Part shown: positions 16,655-32,676 of the stretch, in pieces
Layout of the letters: each line of letters starts with the position of its first letter
Position numbering within the stretch: the first letter of the stretch is position 1
Assembly: GCA_041690395.1 (NCBI GenBank)
Contig: JAWLHJ010000003.1
Coordinates: forward strand, 288,001-352,000
DNA length: 64,000 bases
From: Longimicrobiales bacterium
Lineage (GTDB): Bacteria > Gemmatimonadota > Gemmatimonadetes > Longimicrobiales > Gaopeijiaceae
Reading direction: 5' to 3'
The notes under the pieces: generated by a model
The model's input: the letters and a program-made list of their open reading frames with translations, nothing else
What the model was told of the DNA's origin: nothing
The model's database searches: none
Position numbers and translations under genes: made by a program

Positions 16655-16972
16655 CTACAGCGCGTCCGGATCCGCGAGCCGCCGCAGATACTCGAACGGA
16701 TAGATCCCCGTGCTGTGGCCGTCGCTCCACATGAACTGGAGCGCGTACCGCCCCACGTAGTGGATCTCGGTCGGATACACGCCGGGGTCGATCATCTCGG
16801 GCACGAGCATACGCTCCCCGGTCATCTCGTCCACGCATCCGGCACAGGGGCAGCGCAGCCGCAGGTCTCGCGGAGCATGCTCCGTGACGAAGCCGTCTTT
16901 CCAACGGATACGGAGGCGGGCGCCGTCCTCGGTGGGCGCGATGTCCTCGGGAACGAACCGGTGGTCAGCCAC
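16655..16972 (-). CDS. DUF971 (GBBH-like N-terminal) Cys-rich protein
   Basis: LRIRWKDG, LRLRCPCAGC, VGRYALQFMWSDGHSTGIY. Confidence 0.9.
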   Translation of the reverse strand: MADHRFVPEDIAPTEDGARLRIRWKDGFVTEHAPRDLRLRCPCAGCVDEMTGERMLVPEMIDPGVYPTEIHYVGRYALQFMWSDGHSTGIYPFEYLRRLADPDAL

Positions 16973-17627
16973 GGGCGTCGTCCGCTCGCCGCCGAAGCGC
17001 GGCCGCAAGGGCCCGGAAGGCCTCACCCCGGTGGCTACGCGCGTCCTTCTCCTCGGGCGACAGCTCCGCGAAGGTCCGTCCGAGCTCGGGGACGAGCACG
17101 TGCGGATCGTATCCGAACCCGCCATCCCCCCGCGGCTCGTCCACGATGGTGCCGTCGGCCGCTCCTCGCGTGACGAGGCCGGCATCACCGGTCTGCCCGT
17201 CGAGCATCACCGCCACGCACACGTAGCGCGCGGTTCGCCGGTCGGCGTCCACGCCGCGCAGTCGTTCGACGAGGTAGACGTTGTTCGCCGCGTCCTGCCC
17301 CCCGTGTCCCTCGGCGAGCTCCGGCGGCGCGAACCGCTTGCTCCGAACCCCGGGTGCACCGTCGAGGGCGTCGACCACGATGCCCGAGTCGTCGGCCACG
17401 GTGGGTATGCCCGTCTTCCGAAAGAAGTAGGCGGCCTTGGACCGCGCGTTCTCCTCGAAGGTATCGAACGGCTCCAGTCCGTCTTCCTCGGGCGCCTCGG
17501 CGATGCCGGCGTCGTCGAGCGACAGCACCTCGAGACCCGGGACGTCGGCGAGGATCCGGCGGATCTCCCGCATCTTGCCCGCGCTCCTGGTGGCGACCAG
17601 GAGCTTCCCCGGCCCGGAGATCGTCAC
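16965..17627 (-). CDS. rdgB: non-canonical purine NTP pyrophosphatase (RdgB/HAM1)
   Basis: [44 protein letters not shown]; follows rph. Confidence 0.94.
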
Positions 17628-18340
17628 GGACGGAGGGCGCGCGCCTGGGCCGCGAGCAACGCCTCGATGCCCGAGGTCGCGAGATCGAGCAGGGCGTCCA
17701 GCTCGTCGCGTCGGAACGGGTCGCCCTCGGCTGTTCCCTGGACCTCCACGAGACCGCCGCTCTCCGTGCCGACCACGTTCATGTCGACCTGCGCCCGGAC
17801 GTCTTCGCGGTAATCGAGGTCCAGGCGGGGCATGCCGTCCACGATGCCGACGCTTACCGCCGCGACCCGCTCGCTCACGGGATTCCGCTCGACCAGACCT
17901 TCGTCGAGCATCCACCGGCCGGCGAGGATGAGGGCCACGCAGGCCCCGGTGATCGAGGCCGTCCGGGTCCCGCCGTCGGCCTGGAGCACGTCGCAGTCGA
18001 CGGTGACCGTGTGCTGACCGAGGGCCTGCATGTCGGTGACGGAGCGGAGCGAGCGGCCGATCAGCCGCTGGATCTCCTGGGTACGTCCCTTGGGACCGTT
18101 TCGCTCTCGTCCGGACCGCGTGTGGGTCGCGCGGGGCAGCATCGCGTACTCGCCCGTAACCCACCCGGCGCCGCTCCTGAGCCGCCAGTCGGGAACGCCT
18201 TCGACCACGGAGGCCGTGCAGAGAACCCGGGTGTCACCGGTCGAGATGGTGCACGAGCCCTCGGCATACGGAGCCACGCCCGTCTCGATCGTGATCGGTC
18301 GCGGCTCGTCGAGCCTCCTTCCATCGGGGCGGTCAGCCAT
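17624..18340 (-). CDS. rph: ribonuclease PH
   Basis: [60 protein letters not shown]. Confidence 0.97.
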
Positions 18341-18821
18341 CCCCAGTCTCCCTGATTCGTCGCAGCAGTGCCGTCGTGGAGTAGCCCTCCACGAACGGTA
18401 TGATCTCCACGCGCCCCCCCGCCCCTTCGACCGCTTCGCGGCCGACGACCTGATCGACGGTGTAGTCCCCGCCCTTCACCAGGACGTCCGGCAGGAGCGC
18501 CTCGATGAGCGCGGCGGGTGTATCCTCGTCGAACAGGGACACGGCGTCCACCGACTCGAGCGAGGCGAGCACGAGCGCCCGCGCTTCTTCTCCCACGAGG
18601 GGACGGTCCGCGGCCTTGTCGAGCCGACGTACCGACGCGTCGGTGTTCACACCGACCACGAGGGCGTCTCCGAGCGCGCGCGCCCGGGCCAGGTAGGTCA
18701 CGTGCCCGGGGTGCAGGAGATCGAAGCACCCGTTCGTGAAGACCAGTCGCCCGGTGCGCGGGCGGCCGAACCTGGCCAGGAGCACGTCTCTCGACAGCAC
18801 CTTGTCCGCAGGGCGTCTCAC
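18333..18821 (-). CDS. rfaE2: D-glycero-beta-D-manno-heptose 1-phosphate adenylyltransferase (stand-alone HldE domain II)
   Basis: [40 protein letters not shown]. Confidence 0.93.
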
Positions 18822-18831
18822 GCCGGCGTCC

Positions 18832-19644
18832 TCATGCGGAGGCCGCGGCCGCGAGCAGGTCGCGCCCGCCGCGCTCGATCAGCTGCTCGGCGATACGACG
18901 CCCCGCGGTCGCCGGATCGTCGAGCCGCCCGGAGAAGTCGGCACGGACGAGCCGTCGGTCCGCACGGGCGGGCAGCAGCGCACGCATCCGGAGCAGCGGG
19001 CCGTGGGGCCGGGCCATCACACCGACCGGCGCATCCGGGCCCACGTCGAGCACTTGGAGGACGACCTGCTCGGCCTCGAGCGCCGCACGGGCGGCCGGCT
19101 CGTCCAGCTCGGCGAGAATCTCCGTCAGGGCGTTCTGGTCGGCGTCGGCCTGGAGCACGACGCTTCCCCGCCCCACCGCGGTCGCCCAGGAGGTCGGCTC
19201 GAAGATCTCGCGGATCACGTCGCCGAGCCCGACCGCACGCGCCACGCCCACCGGCGCGATCCATGCATGGACATCCCCCCGCTCGAGCAGATCGGCGGCC
19301 TCGCGTGCGTCTTCGACACGTACCTCGCGCAACTCCACGCGATGCACGCCGAGCATCTCCGCGCGGAGGCCACCAGCCAGCGCTACCCGGGCACCGGCCG
19401 GGAGCTCGGACAGGCTCGGCTTTCCCTCGGGGCCGGTCACGAGCGCGTCGCGCGGCTCGGCCAGACCGATGACCGCCGCGGAGCGCGCCGGCATCTCCGT
19501 GAGCCCCTCGGCCGAAGTCAGGTGCAACTCGGCATCGTGGTCGGCGTCCACGACCGTCACGGAGAAACCCAGGGCGGCAAGCCGGTCCGCGAGACGCGCG
19601 GCCTGACCTCGGAGCGGATCCGCAACCGCCAATCGCAAGCTCAC
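18832..19644 (-). CDS. hydroxymethylbilane synthase (HemC)-like protein, predicted catalytically inactive
   Basis: Co-linear with HemC ([43 protein letters not shown]) but lacks the cofactor Cys, the catalytic Asp and most conserved Args. Confidence 0.8.
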
Positions 19645-19659
19645 GCGCGCCGCTCCCGG

Positions 19660-21339
19660 TCAGAGATAGACGATCAGGCTCGCCGCGAGAATGATCGCCA
19701 CCCACAGCACCATGCTCCCGACGGGCCAGGAACGCGCGAGCGGCCCGACCGGCCCATGCGTACGGGCCAGGCCCGCGATGAGCGCGCGCACTCGCCCGAG
19801 ACCGGCCGTGGCCAGATGCTCCCGGGCCGCAGTGGTCCGCACCGCGAACTCACGTCCGACGGCGGTCCCGAAGCGCCGGTAGAACCAGTCCCAGTCCAGC
19901 GAAATGGTGAGCGTCCGCTTCATCAGGGGCAACATCACGAAGAACGCGAGGCCCGCGAAGAGCAGAAGCTGGAACTGGCTTACCAGGTGGCTCGCGGTGT
20001 ATGGCTCGTACTCCACCGGATACGGCAGAATCGCGTAGAGCGGCCCCGGCAGCACGCCGAGCCCGATGCAGAACGCGCTGAACAGCCACATGGGCCAGAC
20101 CATGTTCTTCGGCGGATCCGACGGGCGGAGCCCGGAGTCCTTCTGGAAGAACACGAACCACGGGAACTTGATGCCCGCGTGGAGGAAGACGCCCGCGGAC
20201 GCCGCCGTAAGCACGAACCAGGCGATCGCGATGTGCTCGTGGGCCGCCGCGTCGTTGATCATCGACTTCGAGATGAAGCCCGAAGTGAACGGGAACGACG
20301 AGATGGCGAGGGCGCCGATGATCCCGGCCGTCGCGGTCTGCGGCATGGTCCGGAAGAGACCGCCGAGGTCCGTACACTTCCGCTTGCCCGTCATGTACAG
20401 CACGCTGCCGGCCGACATGAGTAGGAGCGCCTTGTAGATGATGTGGCTGAAGGCGTGCGCGGTCGCGCCGTTCAGCGCCTCCTCCGTCCCGATCCCGATG
20501 CCGGTCACCATGAACCCGACCTGGTTCACGATCGAGTACGCCAGGATACGCCGCATGTCGTTCTCGAGCAGCGCGTAGACGATCCCGTACACGGCCATGT
20601 AGAGACCGACGTAGATGAGGACCTGCGTACCCGGGAACGCCATCATGAGCGTGAAGACGGCGGTCTTCGTCGTGAACGCCGACAGGAAGACCATGCCGCT
20701 CGGGCTCGCCTCCGGATACGCGTCCGCGATCCAGGCCGAGAGCGGCGGCGCGCCGGCGTTGATCAGGAAGCCGATCAGGATCATCACGTTCGCGAAGCTG
20801 TCGAGCTGCATCGGCTCGAACGCCACCGATCCGGTCTGCGCGATGTGCGCGACCACGCCGAACATGAGAACGACGCCGCCGAACACGTGCACGAGCAGAT
20901 AGCGCATGCTCGCCGCGTACGCCTCCGACTGGTCCGACGCCCACAGGACCAGCGTCGATCCGATCGCCATCAGCTCCCAGAACACGAACATCGTGATCAG
21001 GTCGCCCGCGAACGTCACGCCCACCGCGCTGCCCGCGTAGGCGAAGGCCGCGGCGAGCTCGAGGACCCGCGCCTGGCGGATGGCGAACACCCCGCCCGCG
21101 AACGCCATGATGGCGAAGACGGTGGCGAACACCCGCCCGGTCGCCGTCCAATGGACGGGCATGAGGTCGTAGTCGAGGAACGGCACGGTGACCGTGTGCC
21201 CCTCGGGGACCATCCAGACGGCGGCGAGGGTCAGGAGCGGCAGCCCCATCACCACCAGGTTGCGCAGGCCGCCCCGGGTCGCCGGAATCAGGAACGCTCC
21301 GGCGATGAGCAACAGGCCGGGAGGGAACGACACGGTCAT
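19660..21339 (-). CDS. mrpD: Mrp-type Na+/H+ antiporter, proton-conducting subunit (D/A-like)
   Basis: FVFWELM, WIADAYPEASPSG, FTTKTAV, ENDMRRILAYS, HAFSHIIYKALL. Confidence 0.87.
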   Translation of the reverse strand: MTVSFPPGLLLIAGAFLIPATRGGLRNLVVMGLPLLTLAAVWMVPEGHTVTVPFLDYDLMPVHWTATGRVFATVFAIMAFAGGVFAIRQARVLELAAAFAYAGSAVGVTFAGDLITMFVFWELMAIGSTLVLWASDQSEAYAASMRYLLVHVFGGVVLMFGVVAHIAQTGSVAFEPMQLDSFANVMILIGFLINAGAPPLSAWIADAYPEASPSGMVFLSAFTTKTAVFTLMMAFPGTQVLIYVGLYMAVYGIVYALLENDMRRILAYSIVNQVGFMVTGIGIGTEEALNGATAHAFSHIIYKALLLMSAGSVLYMTGKRKCTDLGGLFRTMPQTATAGIIGALAISSFPFTSGFISKSMINDAAAHEHIAIAWFVLTAASAGVFLHAGIKFPWFVFFQKDSGLRPSDPPKNMVWPMWLFSAFCIGLGVLPGPLYAILPYPVEYEPYTASHLVSQFQLLLFAGLAFFVMLPLMKRTLTISLDWDWFYRRFGTAVGREFAVRTTAAREHLATAGLGRVRALIAGLARTHGPVGPLARSWPVGSMVLWVAIILAASLIVYL

Positions 21340-21680
21340 CGGTCGCCTCCGGTCCGGCCGTCGGTGTCCGGGAAGCCGTTGGCCGCCCCGTCGTAGTACA
21401 CGTCCTTCCGCTTCAGGAAGATGCCCAGGAGCTTCGCGCCGACGACCATCGCCACGCACGTGACGAAGCCGTACCAGGCATAGAAGCCGAACGTGGCGTC
21501 GATACCGAAGTACTCGTAGTGGTCGACGAACAGGTCACCGGCGACGATCAGCGCCAGGACCACGGACGACCCGATCCACAGCTTGCGGATCGTTTCGGGC
21601 TTCACGAGCCAGTGCTCGGGCTCGTCGGGCGCCTTGCGCGGCGGATTTCCGGGCTCGGTCATGCGGCGTGCTTCACTCAT
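21336..21680 (-). CDS. small two-TM protein inside the mrp operon
   Basis: HWLVKPETIRKLW...FYAWYGFVTCVAMV...LKRKDVYY; coupled to both neighbours by ATGA overlaps. Confidence 0.75.
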   Translation of the reverse strand: MSEARRMTEPGNPPRKAPDEPEHWLVKPETIRKLWIGSSVVLALIVAGDLFVDHYEYFGIDATFGFYAWYGFVTCVAMVVGAKLLGIFLKRKDVYYDGAANGFPDTDGRTGGDR

Positions 21681-23191
21681 GGAGCGCCTCCGACGAGGGC
21701 CTTGGCCAGCGCGAGCGGCACTCCGGGGAAGAAGAAGAGGAGAACGGTCAGCCCAGCGGTGATGGTGAGCGCCACGACGATCGGCCAGGGCGCCTCACCA
21801 TGGTCGTGCGCGCCGTGATCGTCACCGCCTCCGCCGACGTACGCCGGAGCCTGGGCCTCCTCCGCCTGGAAGAAGGCCATGTAGATGATCGGCACGAAGT
21901 ACGCGGCGTTCAGCAGCGTCGACGCGATCAGGATCGCGAGCACGACCATGTGCTGGGACTCGAAGGCCCCCATCATCATGTACCACTTGCTGATGAAGCC
22001 CCCAGCGGGCGGCAGTCCGATCATGGACAACGCGCCCACCGCGAAGGCGCCCATGGTCCAGGGCATCCGGCGGCCGATGCCCCTGAGCTGGCTGATCTCG
22101 GTCTTGTGCGCGGCCGTGTAGATGGAGCCCGCCGCGAAGAACAGGGTGATCTTGCCGAATGCGTGCGCCACGATGTGGAGCGCCGCACCCGCGGCGGCCA
22201 TCGGCACGAACATGGCTGCCGCCAGCACCACGTAGCTCAACTGGCTGACCGTGGAGTACGCGAGCATGCGCTTCAGGTTACCCCGCGCCATCAGGATCCG
22301 GAGCGCCACGATGGAGCCCGCGAGGACCGTGAACCCCGAGGCGTAAACCAGCCACCCGGTTCCGGCCTCAGCCGCCAGGAAGTCGAGGCCGAAGACGTAG
22401 ACGACGACCTTCACGACGCTGAACACACCGGCCTTCACGACGGCCACGGCGTGGAGGAGCGCCGAAACCGGCGTCGGCGCGACCATCGCGGCCGGGAGCC
22501 AGCGATGGACCGGCATGACCGCCGCCTTACCGATGCCGAACATGAAGAGCGCGAGCAGGACGCCCACCAGCGGACCCTCGACGTGCCCTGCGAGAATGCC
22601 ACCCTGCTGGAAGTCCACCGACCCGGTGAGCACGTACGTCCAGATGATGCCCAGGAGGAGCAGTCCGACCGACGTCGTGATCAGGATGCCGAGATACACC
22701 CGGCCCGCCTTCATGGCGTCCTCGGTGCCCTTGTGGGTCACGAGCGGGTACGTCGAGACGGTGAGGATCTCGTAGAAGACGAAGAGCGTGACCAGGTTGC
22801 CGGAGAAGGCGATGCCGATGGCGCTCGCGATCGCCACCGCGAAGCAGACGTAGAAGCGGGTCTGCTTCTTCTCGTGGTTCCCCCGCATGTACCCGATGGA
22901 GTACAGCGAGTTGACCGGCCACAGGAGCGCCGCCACGCCGGCGAAGATCATGCCCAGCGGCTCGACTTCGAGGATGAGGCTGATCCCCGGAACCATCTCG
23001 ACCAGCGTGACCTGGGGACGGCCGCCCGCGAGAACTTCGGGCAGGATCGACCCGACGATGACGAGAAGGATGCCCGCGGTGACCAGCGTGACCGTCTCGC
23101 GGAGATTCGGGCTCGCGCCGGTGAGGGCGATTCCGAACGCCCCGACTGTCGGGACGACGAGCGCGAGCACCATCAGCATCTCGGTGCTCAC
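21677..23191 (-). CDS. mrpD: Mrp-type antiporter subunit D family
   Basis: FVFYEILT, KAAVMPVHRWLPAAMVAPTPVSALLHAVAVVKAG, AHAFGKITLF. Confidence 0.9.
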   Translation of the reverse strand: MSTEMLMVLALVVPTVGAFGIALTGASPNLRETVTLVTAGILLVIVGSILPEVLAGGRPQVTLVEMVPGISLILEVEPLGMIFAGVAALLWPVNSLYSIGYMRGNHEKKQTRFYVCFAVAIASAIGIAFSGNLVTLFVFYEILTVSTYPLVTHKGTEDAMKAGRVYLGILITTSVGLLLLGIIWTYVLTGSVDFQQGGILAGHVEGPLVGVLLALFMFGIGKAAVMPVHRWLPAAMVAPTPVSALLHAVAVVKAGVFSVVKVVVYVFGLDFLAAEAGTGWLVYASGFTVLAGSIVALRILMARGNLKRMLAYSTVSQLSYVVLAAAMFVPMAAAGAALHIVAHAFGKITLFFAAGSIYTAAHKTEISQLRGIGRRMPWTMGAFAVGALSMIGLPPAGGFISKWYMMMGAFESQHMVVLAILIASTLLNAAYFVPIIYMAFFQAEEAQAPAYVGGGGDDHGAHDHGEAPWPIVVALTITAGLTVLLFFFPGVPLALAKALVGGAP

Positions 23192-24666
23192 GGCGTGCCT
23201 CCGAGCAGCATGCGCGCGGCCTGGCCCGCGACCCCGGACGTGAAGGTCGCGTCGATGCCGAAGTAGAAGTTGGCCACGATCAACGCCCAGGTCGGGAGGA
23301 GCAGGCCGAGCGGAGCTTCCTGAACCGTATCGTCATCACCGGCGAAGTCCTTGAAGTACGCGGCCTCCACGACCTTCCAGATATAGACGACCGCCATCAG
23401 CGACGTGATGAGCACCAGCACCGCGACCGGCCACCAGCCGAGCTCGAGCGCGCCCGAGATCAGGTACCACTTGCTGATGAACCCGACCGTGGCGGGAACG
23501 CCGATGAGGCTCAGGCCGGCCAGCACGAATGAGGCCATGGTCCACGGCATCTTACGGCCGAGTCCCTGCATGGCCTCGATGTGGACGGACCCGATGCGGT
23601 AGAAGACGGCGCCGAGCGCCATGAAGAGCGCGCCCTTCATGAGGGCGTGGTTGAACATGTGCACGATGGCCGCCGTGAGGCCTGTCACCGAGGCCATGCT
23701 CACGCCGAGGATCATGTACCCGATCTGCGCGACCGACGAATAGGCCAGCATGCGCTTCACGTTGACCTGGAAGATCGCGACCAGCGACATGCTGAAGATC
23801 GCGACCAGCGCGAGCGGCATGAACACCAGGTCCACCTGCATCCGGTCGAACGCGAAGGCCGCGCCGAACACGGTGAAGAAGAACCGGAGCATCATGTAGA
23901 CCGCGACCTTGGTCGCGGTCGCCGCGATGAACGCCGTGACGGCCGAAGGCGCGTACGTGTATGCGTTCGGCAGCCACAGATGGAGCGGGAAGAGCGCCAG
24001 CTTCAGGCTGAACCCGACGGCCAGGAACGCGAAGGCGACCGGAATCGTACGCTGGTCCATGACCGCGGGTAGCCGCTCGGCCAGGTCGACCATGTTCAGC
24101 GTGCCGGTCATCGCGTACATGAGCCCGATGCCGATCACGATGAAGGTCGCGCCGACCGACCCCATGATGAGGTACTGGTACGAGGACACAAGGGCCCGCC
24201 GGTCCTGCCCCATCGCGATGAGCGCGTAGGCGGAGAGCGACGAGATCTCGAGGAAGACGAAGACGTTGAACACGTCGCCGGTCACCGAGATGCCGAGGAG
24301 CCCGGTCAGGCTCAGGATCCACGCGGCGTAGAAGAGCGGAATGCGGTCGCTCTCGACCTCGCGCTCGACGCTCTGTCTCGCATAGAGCACCGCGACCGCG
24401 CCGATGGCCGCGACGATGAACGCCACGAAAGCGCTCACCGCGTCGATGCGGTACTCGATACCGATCGGTGGAGCCCAGGACCCCATCTCGTAGCGCAGGA
24501 CCCGGCCGCCCTGCACCTGCGCGAGCAGCCCACCGGCAGCGTAGAGCGCCCAGAAAGAAGCCGCCACCGCGACCAGCCACGAGAGCGTGGGCCGGTTCAG
24601 GAGCGCGGCCAGCGGAGCCGCGATGAGCGGGACCGCGACGAGAAGTACCGGAAGGTGCTCGATCAC
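23188..24666 (-). CDS. mrpD: Mrp-type antiporter subunit D
   Basis: FNVFVFLEISS, LKLALFPLHLWLPNAY, KRMLAYSSVAQIGY, NHALMKGALF. Confidence 0.92.
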   Translation of the reverse strand: MIEHLPVLLVAVPLIAAPLAALLNRPTLSWLVAVAASFWALYAAGGLLAQVQGGRVLRYEMGSWAPPIGIEYRIDAVSAFVAFIVAAIGAVAVLYARQSVEREVESDRIPLFYAAWILSLTGLLGISVTGDVFNVFVFLEISSLSAYALIAMGQDRRALVSSYQYLIMGSVGATFIVIGIGLMYAMTGTLNMVDLAERLPAVMDQRTIPVAFAFLAVGFSLKLALFPLHLWLPNAYTYAPSAVTAFIAATATKVAVYMMLRFFFTVFGAAFAFDRMQVDLVFMPLALVAIFSMSLVAIFQVNVKRMLAYSSVAQIGYMILGVSMASVTGLTAAIVHMFNHALMKGALFMALGAVFYRIGSVHIEAMQGLGRKMPWTMASFVLAGLSLIGVPATVGFISKWYLISGALELGWWPVAVLVLITSLMAVVYIWKVVEAAYFKDFAGDDDTVQEAPLGLLLPTWALIVANFYFGIDATFTSGVAGQAARMLLGGTP

Positions 24667-25016
24667 TGGCTCTCGTCCTCGATCTCGGCTTCTTCGATGG
24701 TTCCGTAGGCCTCTTTGATCCTCACCGTGAGCGCGAGGCCGACCGCGGTCGTGGCGACGCCGACGACGATGGCGGTCAGGATGAGGACGTGCGGTATCGG
24801 ATTGGAGTAGACCACCCCTTCCGCCCCCGAGATCAGGTACGGGGGGGTCCCGCCGGTGATCTTGCCCAGGCTGATGTAGAGGATGAAGACCGACGCCTGG
24901 AAGATGTTCAGGCCGATCAGCTTCTTCACCAGGTTCCCGCGGGCGATCAGGATGTAGAAACCGGTCATCATCAGGAAGACGACCGCCCAGTAGTTGAAGA
25001 GCCCCAACGCTTCCAT
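24663..25016 (-). CDS. mrpC: Mrp antiporter subunit C
   Basis: NLVKKLIGL, NPIPHVLILTAIVVGVAT. Confidence 0.92.
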   Translation of the reverse strand: MEALGLFNYWAVVFLMMTGFYILIARGNLVKKLIGLNIFQASVFILYISLGKITGGTPPYLISGAEGVVYSNPIPHVLILTAIVVGVATTAVGLALTVRIKEAYGTIEEAEIEDESQ

Positions 25017-25017
25017 A

Positions 25018-25437
25018 TCAGCTCTTCCTCCGGCCGGCGAACGCGTAGAACAGGCCCACCATGACCCCGAAGACCGTGGTGATCACCCCTGCTTCGATCA
25101 TCAGGATGCCGTAGTGCTGCCCGGACGCCGGGTCGGGTCCGAGCACGTTGTAGCCCAGGAAGTTTTCGCCGAGGGCCAGCGCCAGGAATCCCGTCCCCGC
25201 GAAGATCATGACCCCCAGCGCGCCGCACACGTACGGGACGGAGGGGGGCAGGACGCGCAGAACGTTGGCGAGGCCGTATACGAGGGCGTAGAGGATGAAC
25301 GCCGAAGCCAGGATCACCCCGGCCTGGAAGCCGCCGCCGGGGCCGTAGTCGCCGTGGAACTGGACGTAGAAGGCGAAGACCATGATGAACGGAGTCAGGA
25401 TCTTCGAGCCGATCCTGAGGATCACGCGATCATCCAT
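25018..25437 (-). CDS. mrpB: Mrp antiporter subunit B
   Basis: QFHGDYGPGGGFQAGV MnhB motif. Confidence 0.9.
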   Translation of the reverse strand: MDDRVILRIGSKILTPFIMVFAFYVQFHGDYGPGGGFQAGVILASAFILYALVYGLANVLRVLPPSVPYVCGALGVMIFAGTGFLALALGENFLGYNVLGPDPASGQHYGILMIEAGVITTVFGVMVGLFYAFAGRRKS

Positions 25438-26062
25438 GGTCGGCCTCCTTCTTCTTCCTCGCCGGGCTGGCGCCGCCGGCTCGCCGGATCGCGTCACGGC
25501 CCAGGGAGCCGGGCCGCATGTCCACCGACCGGTGACCGTTCTGCCCGCCTCGCGCCAGCAGCAGGAGCACGCCGACGAGCGCGGTGAAGACCACGGCCGC
25601 CTCACCCATGGTGTCGAATCCGCGGTACGAGCCGAGCACCACGGTCACGATGTTCGGGATGTGCGTGTCGTCATAGGACTCTTCCAGGTAGTACGGCGCG
25701 ACGTGCTGATGAACGGGATTGTCGGCCGCGCCGAACGTCGGCATGTCCAGCGACCCGTAGATCAGGATCCCACCGACCACGAGCGTGACGAAGAGAGGCA
25801 GGATGGGCCGATGCTTCGGCTTCGCCTCCTCGCTTCCGACGAGGGCGAGCGTCCCCAGCATGAGGATCGTGGAGACCCCGGCGCCGACGGCGGCCTCCGT
25901 GAAGGCCACGTCCATTGCGTCCATGGTCACGAACAGGCCCGCGGAAAGCAGGCTGTAGATGCCCATGAGCATGGTGGCGGCGAACAGGTTCCGGATACGA
26001 ACCACCGCGATGGCGGTCACGCCGAGGAGCACCAGCAGCACGATATCGACGACGGTGATCAC
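25430..26062 (-). CDS. Mrp subunit B'/A C-terminal part (DUF4040 domain)
   Basis: DVAFTEAAVGAG, NIVTVVLGSYRGFDTMGE. Confidence 0.88.
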   Translation of the reverse strand: MITVVDIVLLVLLGVTAIAVVRIRNLFAATMLMGIYSLLSAGLFVTMDAMDVAFTEAAVGAGVSTILMLGTLALVGSEEAKPKHRPILPLFVTLVVGGILIYGSLDMPTFGAADNPVHQHVAPYYLEESYDDTHIPNIVTVVLGSYRGFDTMGEAAVVFTALVGVLLLLARGGQNGHRSVDMRPGSLGRDAIRRAGGASPARKKKEADHG

Positions 26063-26382
26063 GAGGCGGCCTCCCCCTGCTCGTCGGGTGCCGAGCGACT
26101 CATCCCGAGAATCGCGGCCCGGGCGAGCGCGTGGCTCGCTATGGGGCTGGTGAAGAGCAGGAACGCGTAGATGAAGAGGAGCCGGACAAGTACCATCCAG
26201 TCGGTGGTCTGGAGCGCCATGCCGAGCAAGAGGAAGCCCGCCCCCATGGTGTCCGTCATGCCGGCCGGATGGAGTCGGGCGAGGATGTCGGGCATCCTCA
26301 GGATGCCGACGGTCCCGACGATCATGAAGAACAGCCCCGAGACGATGAAGACCCAGCTCAGGATATCGAGGATCGGCTCCAT
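26059..26382 (-). CDS. mrpG: Mrp antiporter subunit G
   Basis: GILRMPDILARLHPAG..DTMG, TSPIASHALARAA. Confidence 0.92.
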   Translation of the reverse strand: MEPILDILSWVFIVSGLFFMIVGTVGILRMPDILARLHPAGMTDTMGAGFLLLGMALQTTDWMVLVRLLFIYAFLLFTSPIASHALARAAILGMSRSAPDEQGEAAS

Positions 26383-26669
26383 CAGGCCTCCCCTCCCCCG
26401 AGCGGCTCGCGCCCACGCCCGAGATCCCGGAACTCGAAGAACTTCAGCACGGTGATGGTCCCGATGAAGTTGATGAGCGCGTAGACGAGCGCGAGATCGA
26501 GGAATTCGGGGCGGCCGTTCAGGTATCCGAGCACCGCGATCAGCAGCACGGTCTTGGTGCCGAAGATGTTCACGGCGAGCACACGGTCGTATACGGAGGG
26601 CCCGACGAGCGCGCGCACGAGCGCCAAGCTCATGCTGACGAGGACTCCGGCGGTGGCGACGAAGAACAT
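26382..26669 (-). CDS. mrpF: Mrp antiporter subunit F
   Basis: GPSVYDRVLA, DLALVYALINFIGT. Confidence 0.92.
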   Translation of the reverse strand: MFFVATAGVLVSMSLALVRALVGPSVYDRVLAVNIFGTKTVLLIAVLGYLNGRPEFLDLALVYALINFIGTITVLKFFEFRDLGRGREPLGGGEA

Positions 26670-27142
26670 CAGGAACCCTCCACCCAGTGGACGCGGCGGA
26701 TCATCGGGTCGGCTTCGTCGGTGTCGAAACCGTCACCTTCGAGCACGTGCACCTCGATCGTGTCGCCGTCGATCGCGGTCGTGACGGTGCCCGGCGTCAG
26801 CGTCACCGAGTTCCCGTAGATGACCTTGGCGAGGTCGGTGCGGTAGCGGATCGGGTAGCGGCCGAGCTTCGGCGAGATGGGCAGCCGCGGATCGAGGACG
26901 ATGCGGGCCATGCGCACGTTCGACTTGAAAACCTCCCAGAGGAGCCACGGGAGGTAGACGAGGAAGCGGAAGCCGATGTGGAGCGGGAGGCCTTCCTCGT
27001 CGACCACGTCCATGCGGCGCGCGACGTACACCACGAGGAGGCACGAAGCCGCTCCCAGGCTCAGGAGCAGAGGTGTATAGTGCCCCGAAAGGAGGAGCCA
27101 GAAACCGTACAGTATCGCGCCCAGTCCGAATAGTCGGAGCAA
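26669..27142 (-). CDS. mrpE: Mrp antiporter subunit E
   Basis: FWLLLSGH, NSVTLTPGTVT, EVHVL; TTG start after a GGAG RBS. Confidence 0.9.
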   Translation of the reverse strand: MLRLFGLGAILYGFWLLLSGHYTPLLLSLGAASCLLVVYVARRMDVVDEEGLPLHIGFRFLVYLPWLLWEVFKSNVRMARIVLDPRLPISPKLGRYPIRYRTDLAKVIYGNSVTLTPGTVTTAIDGDTIEVHVLEGDGFDTDEADPMIRRVHWVEGS

Positions 27143-27215
27143 GCTTGACTCCCTGATGAATGTTCCAGGCTGACGGGCGTGCGCGCCCCGCATAGGCGAA
27201 AAATCAGCGCGGAAT

Positions 27216-27761
27216 CTACCAGTTGGACTGCGCCCCGTCCACAATGGCCTGGACCAACAGCTCGATGGCGGCTCTCCGCCCCTCTTCCTCGGGGGCGCCT
27301 TCCGCGAAAAGCCCTTGCGCCGTCTCGCTGTTCGATTCCCAAAGGATCACGTTCTCGACCCGGTCGACGATCTGGACGCTGATCGAGATCCGCACCTCGC
27401 GCTGGAGCACCTCGGCAGGCTGACCACCCGCACCTGCCCTGTAGTTCGGTGCTTGGACGTCGTAGCGGGTGACGGATCCGCGCACCACCGCGTCGGCCGA
27501 CTCCAGACCCGCCTGGCGGACGCCGAGCGCGGACGGGAGACTCCTCACGAGCTCGTCGTAGAGCTCGCTCGCGACCTCGAATCGCTCGGACTCGTTGTCG
27601 AACGGCTCGATCGCGATGGTGCGGACGTGTGGCGGAGGGAAGGAGCCCGCTTGGAAGGAGTAGTTGCACCCCGCGGCCGCGATCACCGCCGCCAGCACCG
27701 TGCAGGCGGTGAGCGGCACTCGGCGGCGGGGGCGCAGGGTCGGCGTCAGGTCGGAGATCAT
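27216..27761 (-). CDS. lptE: LPS assembly lipoprotein LptE family
   Basis: AAGCNYSF lipobox, VRTIAIEPFDNES, ADAVVRGSVTRY, C-terminal QSNW. Confidence 0.75.
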   Translation of the reverse strand: MISDLTPTLRPRRRVPLTACTVLAAVIAAAGCNYSFQAGSFPPPHVRTIAIEPFDNESERFEVASELYDELVRSLPSALGVRQAGLESADAVVRGSVTRYDVQAPNYRAGAGGQPAEVLQREVRISISVQIVDRVENVILWESNSETAQGLFAEGAPEEEGRRAAIELLVQAIVDGAQSNW

Positions 27762-30167: not shown

Positions 30168-30557
30168 TCAGCTCCTCACCCGCGCGACGCACTCGATCTC
30201 GACACCGGACGCCTTCGGGAGCGCTGCCGCCTGCACCGCCGCGCGGGCGGGACGGTGGTCACCGAAGTGCTTGGCGTAGACTTCGTTCATCTCCTGGAAG
30301 TCACCCATGTCGGCCAGGAAGACGGTGGTCTTCACGACGCGGTCCATCCCCGAGCCCGCGGCCTCGAGCACGGCACGCATGTTCCGGAGGACCAGATCGG
30401 TCTGGTCCGCGATCGACCCCCTCTCCATCTCCCCCGTCGACGGATCGAGCGGGATCTGCCCCGAGCAGAACACGAAGTCGCCGGTGACGATGGCCTGTGA
30501 ATAGGGTCCGATCGCGGCGGGGGCGTCGTCGGTCTGGATGCGTGCGAGGTCGCTCAT
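30168..30557 (-). CDS. ridA: RidA family enamine/imine deaminase
   Basis: APAAIGPYSQA, SGQIPLDP, VVKTTVFL, MNEVY, PARAAV, LPK...EIECVA. Confidence 0.93.
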   Translation of the reverse strand: MSDLARIQTDDAPAAIGPYSQAIVTGDFVFCSGQIPLDPSTGEMERGSIADQTDLVLRNMRAVLEAAGSGMDRVVKTTVFLADMGDFQEMNEVYAKHFGDHRPARAAVQAAALPKASGVEIECVARVRS

Positions 30558-31567
30558 GGATGGGTCTCCTTCAGGTTGGATTCGTGGAAGCGGCGCACGT
30601 GGTCGCTGAGCTCGTCGGGCGACACGGTCGCCACGCCGGGCTTGCCGACTTCGATGGCGGCGGCGTGGTTGGCGAGCAGAGCCGCCTCCTCGACGGTTCC
30701 TCCTGCGGCCAGGACGACCGCCACGACGGCGGTCACGGTGTCGCCCGCGCCCGAGACATCGTATACGCCGCGGGCCGCCGTGGGCACCCTGACCAGATCT
30801 CCCTCCCCGGTCTGCAGCGCCATGCCCCGTTCCCCCAGTGTCAGGAGGAGGTGCCTTGCCCCCAGGCGCGTCCGGGTCGCCTCCATCCAGCCCTGGTCGC
30901 CGGGGTGGATGAACGCGCCGAGCGCGTCCTCGAGCTCCTTCGCGTTCGGCTTGAACACGGTCGCGCCACCGTATGCGAAGAAGTTCCGGCGCTTCGGATC
31001 GACGACCGACGGAATGCCATGGCGCTCTGCCACGGCCAGGACGCTCGAGATGACCGAGGGAACGAGGACGCCCTTGTTGTAGTCCTCCATGACCACCACG
31101 TCCGAGCCTGCCCCGAGCTCCTCGACCGTGCGGGCGAGCGTCTGGGCGAGCTCGCCCTCGGCGTCGGCGTCGACCTCGTGGTCGAAGCGAACGACCTGCT
31201 GCCGCCGCGCCAGGATCCGCGTCTTCACCGTCGTGGGGCGCTCGTCGGAGAGCACCATCCCCTCGGTTCTGACGCCGAGCTTCTCGAGCTCGCCGCGCAT
31301 CGCCTCGCCGGACGCGTCGCGGCCCGCGAGCCCGACCACGCGGCAGGTCGCGCCGAGCGCGGCGACGTTGGCCGCCACGTTCCCGGCGCCACCGACCGCG
31401 GAGGCCTCCTCCTCGACGCGCACGACCGGAACCGGAGCCTCGGGCGACACCCGGTCGACGACGCCGGAGATGTAGCGGTCGAGCATGAGATCTCCGACCA
31501 CCAGGACCCGGACGTCCGCGATGGCCTGGAGCAGCTCGTGGACGCGCTGCTCCGTCAGCCGGTCCAC
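30554..31567 (-). CDS. rfaE1: D-glycero-beta-D-manno-heptose-7-phosphate kinase (stand-alone HldE domain I)
   Basis: VVGDLMLDRY, RVSPEAPVPVV, GGAGNVAAN, DYNKG, KPN, DVSGAGDTV. Confidence 0.93.
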   Translation of the reverse strand: MDRLTEQRVHELLQAIADVRVLVVGDLMLDRYISGVVDRVSPEAPVPVVRVEEEASAVGGAGNVAANVAALGATCRVVGLAGRDASGEAMRGELEKLGVRTEGMVLSDERPTTVKTRILARRQQVVRFDHEVDADAEGELAQTLARTVEELGAGSDVVVMEDYNKGVLVPSVISSVLAVAERHGIPSVVDPKRRNFFAYGGATVFKPNAKELEDALGAFIHPGDQGWMEATRTRLGARHLLLTLGERGMALQTGEGDLVRVPTAARGVYDVSGAGDTVTAVVAVVLAAGGTVEEAALLANHAAAIEVGKPGVATVSPDELSDHVRRFHESNLKETHP

Positions 31568-32676
31568 GCGTCGCGCCCCCGTGCCTCCAGCGCCACCCAT
31601 CGGTGATCGTCACCGTCTCGAGCCAGGAGCCGGTCCTGGAGGTTCACCGACACGCAGACGTGGTTCGGCACGATCCGGACGCGCTCGGCGATGGACGGGG
31701 TCCAGTCCGACCGGGACAGGTCGAGAACACCGTGCTCCTCGGACAGTCCCTTCACCAGCACCTCTGGATGGTCGAGCACGAAGCCGTACCCCGCGTCGCC
31801 GCCGCGCTCCTCCTTCGAGAGGGCCTTCGAGCCCGCGTCGACGACCGCGCTGCCGGGCACCGCGGTGCTGACCACCGTGGCGAGCACCGTATACGCGACG
31901 GTGTCCGGCGTCGCGATCCCGATCGCGAGTCCCTCGCGGTCGTAGAAGATGCACGACCCGGAACGGATCTCGGTGAGACCGGCGATCTCGTGGCTCCTGC
32001 GCAGCGTCGGCGTGGAGCCACCGCTCACGATCTCGGGCTCCAGGCCCTCGGACCGCAGGGCGTCGAGCGTCTCGGCGACGCGATCGGACACGCGCGCGAC
32101 GGCGGGCCCCTGATCTGCCTCCGCGCCGCGGATATGCCCCGGGTAGAACTGGATGCCACGGAACGCGACCCCGTCCAGGTCGGCGGCCCTACGCGCCAGC
32201 TCGACGACCTGTTCCGCGGTCTGGACGCCTACCCGCCCGAGGCCGACGTCGAGCTCCACCAGCACGCCGATCGTCACGCCGGCGGCGGCCGCCGCGGAGG
32301 CGAGGGGGACCAGCACGTCGGCCGCGTCGAGCGCCACCTTGAGATCGACCCGCTTCGCGATCCGGGTGACCCGTTCGAGCTTGGCCGCGCCCACCGGAGG
32401 ATACGCGAGGAGTAGATCGTCGGTGAGCTCCGACATGACCTCAGCTTCGCGCGGCGTCGCGACCGTCAGCCCCGTCGCGCCGGCCGCGAGCTGGATGCGG
32501 GCGATCTCCAGGGATTTGTGGGTCTTGATGTGGGGCCGCCACGCGAGGCCGTGAGCGGAGGCATAGGCGGCCACGCTCCGGGCGTTGGCCCGCACCCGCT
32601 CGAGATCCACGAGCCCGACGGGCGTCTCCACGGCCTCCGGATCGGGACGGGAGCCTTCGATGTCGCGTTCCGTCAC
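31555..32676 (-). CDS. fold-type III PLP enzyme (D-threonine aldolase / D-serine dehydratase-like)
   Basis: WRPHIKTHK, SGGSTPT, DAGSKALS, SEEHG, PNHVCVSVNL. Confidence 0.88.
   Translation of the reverse strand: MTERDIEGSRPDPEAVETPVGLVDLERVRANARSVAAYASAHGLAWRPHIKTHKSLEIARIQLAAGATGLTVATPREAEVMSELTDDLLLAYPPVGAAKLERVTRIAKRVDLKVALDAADVLVPLASAAAAAGVTIGVLVELDVGLGRVGVQTAEQVVELARRAADLDGVAFRGIQFYPGHIRGAEADQGPAVARVSDRVAETLDALRSEGLEPEIVSGGSTPTLRRSHEIAGLTEIRSGSCIFYDREGLAIGIATPDTVAYTVLATVVSTAVPGSAVVDAGSKALSKEERGGDAGYGFVLDHPEVLVKGLSEEHGVLDLSRSDWTPSIAERVRIVPNHVCVSVNLQDRLLARDGDDHRWVALEARGRDAWTG

Follow-up and report, generated by a model that had tools for sequence, protein, structure and literature searches.

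The window, which is the whole 64,000 nt stretch of DNA analysed here, carries on its minus strand a 270 aa open reading frame that begins with GTG at position 19644 and ends with a stop codon at 18832. It is situated 15 bp behind the stop codon of the last MrpD-like gene of an Mrp antiporter cluster and 10 bp ahead of the rfaE2 start; both gaps and the neighbours are as given in a preliminary description of this DNA. The genes and features of the locus are as follows.

18832..19644, minus strand: pseudo-HemC gene, a three-domain hydroxymethylbilane-synthase fold without the active site, 270 aa (open reading frame, profile matches and model).
19653..19657, minus strand: Shine-Dalgarno-like GGGAG, 8 nt before the GTG start; putative, its function predicted from the sequence.
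18333..18821, minus strand: rfaE2 (heptose-1-phosphate adenylyltransferase), context gene of the ancestral slot (TIGR02199 over cut-off).
17624..18340, minus strand: rph (RNase PH), context gene (TIGR01966 over cut-off).
16965..17630, minus strand: rdgB/Ham1 family, context gene, start approximate (profile match).
19660..27244, minus strand: Mrp antiporter cluster between lptE and the hemC slot, a neighbour and not a partner (profile matches and comparison).
27216..27761, minus strand: lptE, which flanks the slot upstream in many relatives that have no mrp there (locus comparison).

The Mrp D-type subunit beside the pseudo-HemC gene matches NF009310 over cut-off, and lptE is found just before mrpE. 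A scan for promoters and terminators in this region gave chance-level signals only. A small membrane-protein-like gene (21336-21680, minus strand) lies within the mrp cluster, where it separates the second MrpD-like gene from the third; it shows no Pfam match and is kept at the same place in relatives. The two HldE halves are present as separate genes flanking the mrp cluster, a PfkB kinase (30554-31600, minus strand), which we take to be RfaE1-like, and rfaE2 (18333-18821, minus strand). Outside of the window on the same contig, three more MrpD/NuoL-like genes in a row (G000:C3:360485-364430) possibly form a second Mrp-type or hydrogenase-linked cluster.

The window protein matches TIGR00212 with an E-value = 1.5e-18 (66.9 bits, below the cut-off of 164), PF01379 with an E-value = 1.4e-4 and PF03900 with an E-value = 1.4e-3, both under cut-off, and the E. 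coli HemC structures (1ah5) with an E-value = 3.7e-13. All significant matches are to HemC, and the homology is far above chance. An AlphaFold2 model built from a 17-sequence alignment has a mean pLDDT of 93.6 and a pTM of 0.90. When compared with 48,161 PDB representatives in a VIA-align search, its best structural match is 1ah5 (Z 27.1, rmsd 3.4 A, 268 residues aligned), followed by type II binding proteins with Z of 12.2 or less. The three-domain scaffold proposed in the preliminary description is confirmed by the model and this match, and its assignment of a type II binding-protein fold to domains 1-2 agrees with the matches at Z ~12.

The active site is almost entirely gone. According to the portion of the E. 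coli study available (PMC3945110), the enzyme needs C242, D84, R11, R131, R132, R149, R155, R176, R232 and the 40-63 loop; D84A and D84N inactivate it, and R131 and R132 grip the cofactor carboxylates. In an alignment with the intact HemC of the same genome, R11/K83/D84/R131/R132 are A/E/G/L/R in the window protein and R149/R155/R176/R232/C242 are gap/A/A/Q/P, which leaves R132 as the only listed active-site residue. The segments that stand in place of the HemC motifs are ADPL at aa 8, TSAEG at aa 43, ALAGGLR at aa 88, VEDAREAA at aa 110 and a 10-residue cofactor-site segment at aa 199-208 that includes Pro203. Every motif quoted in the preliminary description is found where it was placed, with the Cys to Pro change at 19038-19036, and the deletion of the lid that it reported is also seen: none of the 23 residues of the TxGD..FxKE active-site loop segment is left. 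The altered sites, from the alignment, are:

19036..19038, minus strand: Pro203, which replaces the cofactor-bearing Cys242 (E. coli numbering).
19504..19506, minus strand: Gly47, at the position of the catalytic Asp84; the deletion of the active-site loop falls after about aa 34.
19363..19368, minus strand: Leu93-Arg94, with Arg131 lost and Arg132 kept.

As a member of HemC, the protein thus has the fold and is without Cys242, Asp84, the Arg set, the active-site loop and a TIGR00212 score at cut-off. Judged by its sequence it is a catalytically dead HemC.

A working copy is found elsewhere in the genome. The assembly, which is 98% complete, gives two TIGR00212 matches, the window gene and one over cut-off on another contig (C2). 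The C2 hemC is intact (HSCKD, GTSSPRR, RGNV, GCQ) and sits in a hemB-A-C-D-L-E-H-Y cluster, in which names are from translations and hemB is confirmed by profile; the single hemB match of the genome is also on C2. The check for a canonical hemC called for in the preliminary description therefore finds one, of a separate lineage and in a hem operon.

The window gene belongs to a family of dead copies. A protein search showed 16 relatives with 45-92% identity and lengths of 267-288 aa, all degenerate, and the two that carry a taxon are Gemmatimonadota. The ESM Atlas gave HemC-named clusters only, among them a 71-member Gemmatimonadota cluster, with similar ones in Krumholzibacteriota and Bacillota. 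In the 251 genomes of the window's family, a TIGR00212 match is present in 206 and is over cut-off in 179. Sixty-seven genomes chosen for a weak or second match were searched again, and 60 regions around weak matches were fetched. The resulting degenerate alignment consists of 65 whole frames from 13 genera; it leaves out a copy split over two frames (G248), two at contig ends (G273 and G103), a remnant at another locus (G029) and a duplicate of G001. A search with a family profile added four whole copies (G083, G149, G194, G213). Of the 72 degenerate slot loci fetched, 69 have whole frames, one is split and two are cut by contig ends. Internal stops had been flagged in G001 and G061, and were dismissed as the positions are outside of the true open reading frames, which are whole (272 and 274 aa).

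Within the 65 degenerate copies C242, D84, R11 and R149 are each present in one and K83 in none, as against R131 in 59 and R132 in 54. All 41 intact copies keep the listed residues, save one that is cut by a contig end at R11. Three copies from genus g73 (L126, L128, L129), in a slot without rfaE2, are the most eroded whole copies; the copies of this genus still show the domain-3 strands along with a WxPAxGQG motif.

Among 141 genomes sampled across the phylum, one near-full-length sub-cut-off match was found outside of the window's family, and no others. It is a HemC match in another family of the class (G391:C82:11804-12496). Two HemC homologues without Cys242, P0135 and P0195, also come from outside of the family; P0135 keeps K83/D84 and P0195 keeps W153. 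On their sequences these three may possibly be independent dead HemCs.

All 65 degenerate loci are found upstream of rfaE2/rph/rdgB, and so are all 19 intact slot hemC genes; some of these belong to other genera of the family, the rest to two further families of the order. In a careful tree built on 38 of the 109 rows, 13 of them degenerate, the degenerate copies group as one clade (98/97). It is joined as sister (100/98) by the intact slot HemCs of the window's family, and the operon HemCs form a separate clade. A quick tree of all 109 rows agrees and groups 64 of the 65 degenerate rows together. The exception, G033, represents a second, milder degeneration; this copy (L041:2981-3829) has kept most arginines and has lost K83/D84/C242 and part of the lid, and an intact operon hemC is found elsewhere in that genome. 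Long branches call for caution in both trees, but synteny and shared residues agree with them, and thus the window gene is the original hemC of the family and not a duplicate of the operon gene. The intact hemC of the lptE-hemC-rfaE2-rph-rdgB slot is its ortholog. A recent duplication of the operon hemC is rejected on the topology of both trees. The operon HemCs of five genomes (G131, G190, G115, G019, G023) fall outside of the main operon clade in the quick tree, which suggests that operon HemCs were acquired several times.

The neighbours downstream are themselves variable. The slot is without rfaE2 in g73 and some g12 and without rph in g69, so neither gene is a constant companion. The absence of rph between rfaE2 and rdgB extends over a whole subclade (L074, L087-L089, L143-L147; genera g69, g63, g67, g68).

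Pairwise codon models show that the dead gene is maintained. The window gene and its nearest relative, the G002 copy, give dN/dS = 0.139 (dN 0.129, dS 0.93; p ~1e-25 against 1), and four other pairs with dS <1 give 0.148, 0.201, 0.168 and 0.173 (p <1e-11 against 1 each). Three more pairs, which are saturated, give 0.03-0.09. Tree-wide IQ-TREE values are 0.04-0.2 with a precision inflated by saturated dS; because dS is saturated across the tree, reliance is placed on the pairs with dS <1. In these same unsaturated pairs rph, rfaE2 and rdgB show 0.04-0.29, and operon hemC 0.07. Within the window's genus, at the four more distant loci, pseudo-HemC identity is 45-55% as against 73-90% for rfaE2/rph, i.e. 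the gene evolves faster. Pseudo-HemC is therefore somewhat relaxed but clearly under purifying selection. The preliminary description had named as contrary evidence an intact hemC at this position in close relatives together with neutral decay of this copy; the first is found (19 of 19 loci), the second is not (dN/dS 0.14-0.20). A neutral pseudogene is ruled out by these ratios and by the 69 of 72 whole frames.

With a probability of about 0.9, the window gene is a HemC pseudoenzyme under selection, whatever its job. The earlier suggestion of a repurposed pseudoenzyme stands to the extent that the gene is dead but maintained, and falls where it made the protein an Mrp accessory.

The gene has also been lost repeatedly. 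On a neighbour-gene tree (rph+rfaE2+rdgB), which covers 104 of 108 slot loci, absence of the gene requires 10 changes, of which at least eight are forced by starred branches, and some of the deletions counted are of the intact copy. Repeated deletion indicates that the job of the gene is dispensable. These losses would also fit an expressed relic that has no job within a needed operon, where only misfolding and frame breaks are selected against and loss is slow. Such a relic would account for the graded erosion, which begins with G033, where most arginines survive, and increases through g12/g84 towards g1 and g73, for conserved positions that are mostly general fold residues, and for the G248 copy split across two frames. 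However, in the 24 genomes without a detected pseudo-HemC, mrpD is found directly before rfaE2 in 11 of 19 rfaE2 loci, and these clean deletions show that the operon does not need pseudo-HemC as a spacer. The relic is also difficult to reconcile with persistence over 13 genera or more, at distances well beyond synonymous saturation and with dN/dS like that of the neighbours, or with what happened to a hem cluster of the family that was truly redundant: in the one case seen (G029) it decayed to pieces. We regard it as quite improbable. The G029 cluster itself (G029:C21, L098:3028-4957) is a decaying second hem cluster, with a hemC of 134 aa resulting from an in-frame internal deletion and with hemB and hemL in fragments; an intact hemC is kept at the ancestral slot of this genome.

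The ancestry of the protein, and the presence of both hemC copies in 7 of 7 genomes of the window's genus, suggest a regulator or scaffold of the haem pathway, for instance one that binds working HemC/HemD or buffers intermediates. The occurrence of the gene across the family does not follow this pattern. Five carriers, all 93-100% complete, were compared (G081 and G122, which are single contigs at 98%, and G112, G135 and G237). In these assembled genomes, where absence means "not found", no hemC over cut-off and no hemB was found, hemD, hemE and ferrochelatase (hemH) were found in none of the five, and hemA gave short sub-cut-off matches only, in three of the five. The dead gene is nevertheless selected in genus g69 (dN/dS 0.17 between pairs), and conversely several genomes with an operon-type hemC have no pseudo-HemC. 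Haem-pathway regulation as a general role is thus largely refuted and we consider it very unlikely; a general HemC/HemD regulator is rejected on account of the carriers without a hemA/B/C/D/E/H match. The ligand sensor or scaffold of the preliminary description, read as a HemC/HemD regulator or a porphobilinogen sensor, is weakened by the same carriers. In the window's family as a whole hemC goes without a match in 45 of 251 genomes and hemB in 76 of 251, closed genomes included, and from these searches haem auxotrophy looks common in the family.

An Mrp accessory was among the roles proposed in the preliminary description. The 15 bp gap and the shared strand would fit a protein that serves the neighbouring Mrp Na+/H+ antiporter as accessory subunit or as regulator, and mrp genes are present at 50 of the 65 degenerate loci. 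This frequency is explained by shared ancestry of the locus. Mrp genes lie between lptE and hemC in some genomes only; in many relatives without mrp at the slot the upstream gene resembles lptE. Since lptE is upstream both with and without mrp, the Mrp cluster is a block of variable occurrence between lptE and hemC. Slots that lack it have lptE or other transporter genes upstream, and the mrp cluster of g13 and g77 is oriented away from pseudo-HemC. The intact hemC is also preceded by mrp in 3 of 19 loci (1.5-kb flanks), and mrp persists where the gene is cleanly deleted. Among 18 carriers in which mrp was not seen beside the gene, this MrpD type is over cut-off in three and intermediate or partial in four; the other 11, the single-contig G149 included, have no MrpD-type match better than E = 1e-41, a level at which matches probably represent NuoL/M. 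Conversely, Mrp is over cut-off in 4 of 6 genomes tested that are without pseudo-HemC. The protein is soluble alpha/beta in the model and shows no Mrp family match. An accessory role is rejected as pseudo-HemC and Mrp each occur without the other, and hardly any credence is left for it. The presence or absence of pseudo-HemC is independent of both Mrp and the haem pathway. That the gene is kept in relatives without detected haem or Mrp genes makes a second, non-catalytic binding job likely.

Two parts of the molecule could perform such a job, the opened cleft and domain 3. The distribution of conserved residues bears on both.

18859..19101, minus strand: domain 3, aa 182-262, the best-conserved part of the family (alignment).
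19186..19188, minus strand: Trp153, present in 77 of 77 aligned pseudo-HemCs and 19 of 19 intact slot HemCs, not in operon HemCs (alignment).

Identity between genera for domains 1a/2/1b/3 is 0.27/0.38/0.41/0.43 in pseudo-HemC as against 0.60/0.59/0.50/0.43 in operon HemC. Catalytic domain 1a is thus the least and domain 3 the most conserved in pseudo-HemC, the reverse of the order in operon HemCs, and dN/dS is lower in domain 3 than in domain 2 in 6 of 7 pairs.

Binding of a small molecule in the opened cleft, a putative role, would fit the retention of R131 and R132 in most family members when the other catalytic residues are almost never kept. In E. coli this pair holds the carboxylates of the cofactor (PMC3945110, in the part available), and domains 1-2 resemble type II binding proteins. 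The rest of the cleft is variable, however, and has acquired no new conserved set. R131 itself is lost from the window's genus, which has diverged further (R101 and W221 are L and R, R131 is L in 6 of 7 genomes, and several copies have R for Q198). Without hemB a carrier is unable to produce porphobilinogen, so that a cleft ligand would have to be something else. Cleft binding is an unlikely explanation of the family.

The residues shared by dead and intact slot HemCs point instead to domain 3. The majority of the conserved positions of pseudo-HemC are ordinary fold residues of all HemCs, and W153, E192 and R219 are invariant in 77 pseudo-HemC sequences. A signature consisting of R136, W153, P213, R219, W221, V233, D236, T238 and R258 is common to dead and intact slot HemCs of the family, but seldom found among operon HemCs or 70 other intact HemCs. 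Expressed as percentages of degenerate copies/intact slot HemCs in the family/operon group/70 other intact HemCs, W153 is 100/100/0/16, R219 100/100/12/26, W221 83/64/0/1, D236 75/73/0/10, T238 86/73/0/11, P213 75/82/8/13 and R136 80/64/20/17. Domain 3 carries P213, R219, position 221 (W in the majority of relatives and R in the window protein), R234, D236, S/T238 and R258. In the model 219/221 and 234/236/238 alternate on adjacent strands (E217-226 and E231-240), and helices cover only one face of the domain-3 sheet in the E. coli enzyme as described in the part of PMC3945110 available. From this alternation, these positions would line the helix-free face of the sheet. P0135, a dead HemC from outside of the window's family, is without most of the signature.

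Thus the family may consist of putative non-catalytic binding proteins that use a domain-3 surface which the working ancestor already possessed, with the side job continued after catalysis was lost; we give this form of the pseudoenzyme reading about an even chance. Catalysis would have become dispensable, either because the pathway was lost or because a separately derived hem operon replaced it. The second job would have kept the dead gene, and may consist of cytoplasmic partner binding on the helix-free face of domain 3 and the adjoining W153 loop. Several observations run counter to the domain-3 form. The signature residues may instead serve to hold domain 3 against domain 1, and residues common to degenerate and intact slot copies may reflect shared ancestry alone. 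In addition, W221 is replaced by R in the window's own genus, and the gene is both deleted many times over and further eroded in g73. A wider version, in which the working HemC of this lineage moonlights via domain 3 in a non-haem job, the dead copies act as separation-of-function mutants that isolate this job, and the job is widespread in bacteria, is offered tentatively and is on balance doubtful.

Textbooks present HemC as a monomeric enzyme. The family has given up its entire active site and is still selected even without the haem pathway, which points to a second HemC function and supplies a tool for finding it. In databases pseudo-HemCs are annotated as hydroxymethylbilane synthase, with the result that haem-synthesis calls are inflated in Gemmatimonadota genomes that apparently do not have the pathway. 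Haem biosynthesis has been called general in this phylum, in a text the accessible part of which does not mention hemC (PMC10581226). Titles and abstract starts in the open literature, with few subscription papers covered, yielded no description of a HemC pseudoenzyme, and those of the open literature yielded no non-catalytic or moonlighting role of bacterial HemC; in the part of PMC13564367 available the sole mention of moonlighting concerns PBG synthase. The window family is a real HemC variant and, as far as these searches reach, an undescribed one.

When compared with HemC itself (EC 2.5.1.61; PF01379 and PF03900; TIGR00212; PDB 1AH5, 1PDA), the window protein has the same three-domain fold over its full length (Z 27.1), keeps the hinge motif EPRD, RPDL-like and PAxGQG-like motifs, E231 and R132, and has as its direct ancestor an intact hemC of this locus. 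It differs in being without Cys242, Asp84, Lys83, Arg11/131/149/155/176/232 and the active-site loop, and is approximately 35-45 aa shorter; the conservation profile of the family is inverted, with domain 3 best kept, and the gene is kept without detected haem-synthesis genes. With the type II periplasmic binding and LysR substrate-binding fold it shares domains 1-2, which align at Z 9-12, as in every HemC. Unlike those proteins it has the HemC domain 3, and the model shows its N-terminus as a structured strand; by descent it belongs to HemC and not to the transporter components. Pseudoenzymes are dead homologues kept as regulators or scaffolds, e.g. HisZ, the partner of short HisG, and the pseudokinases, and the window protein likewise has the fold kept, the catalytic set lost and purifying selection. 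Pseudoenzymes usually act on an active paralogue or its pathway, whereas the window family persists in some genomes in which neither was found.
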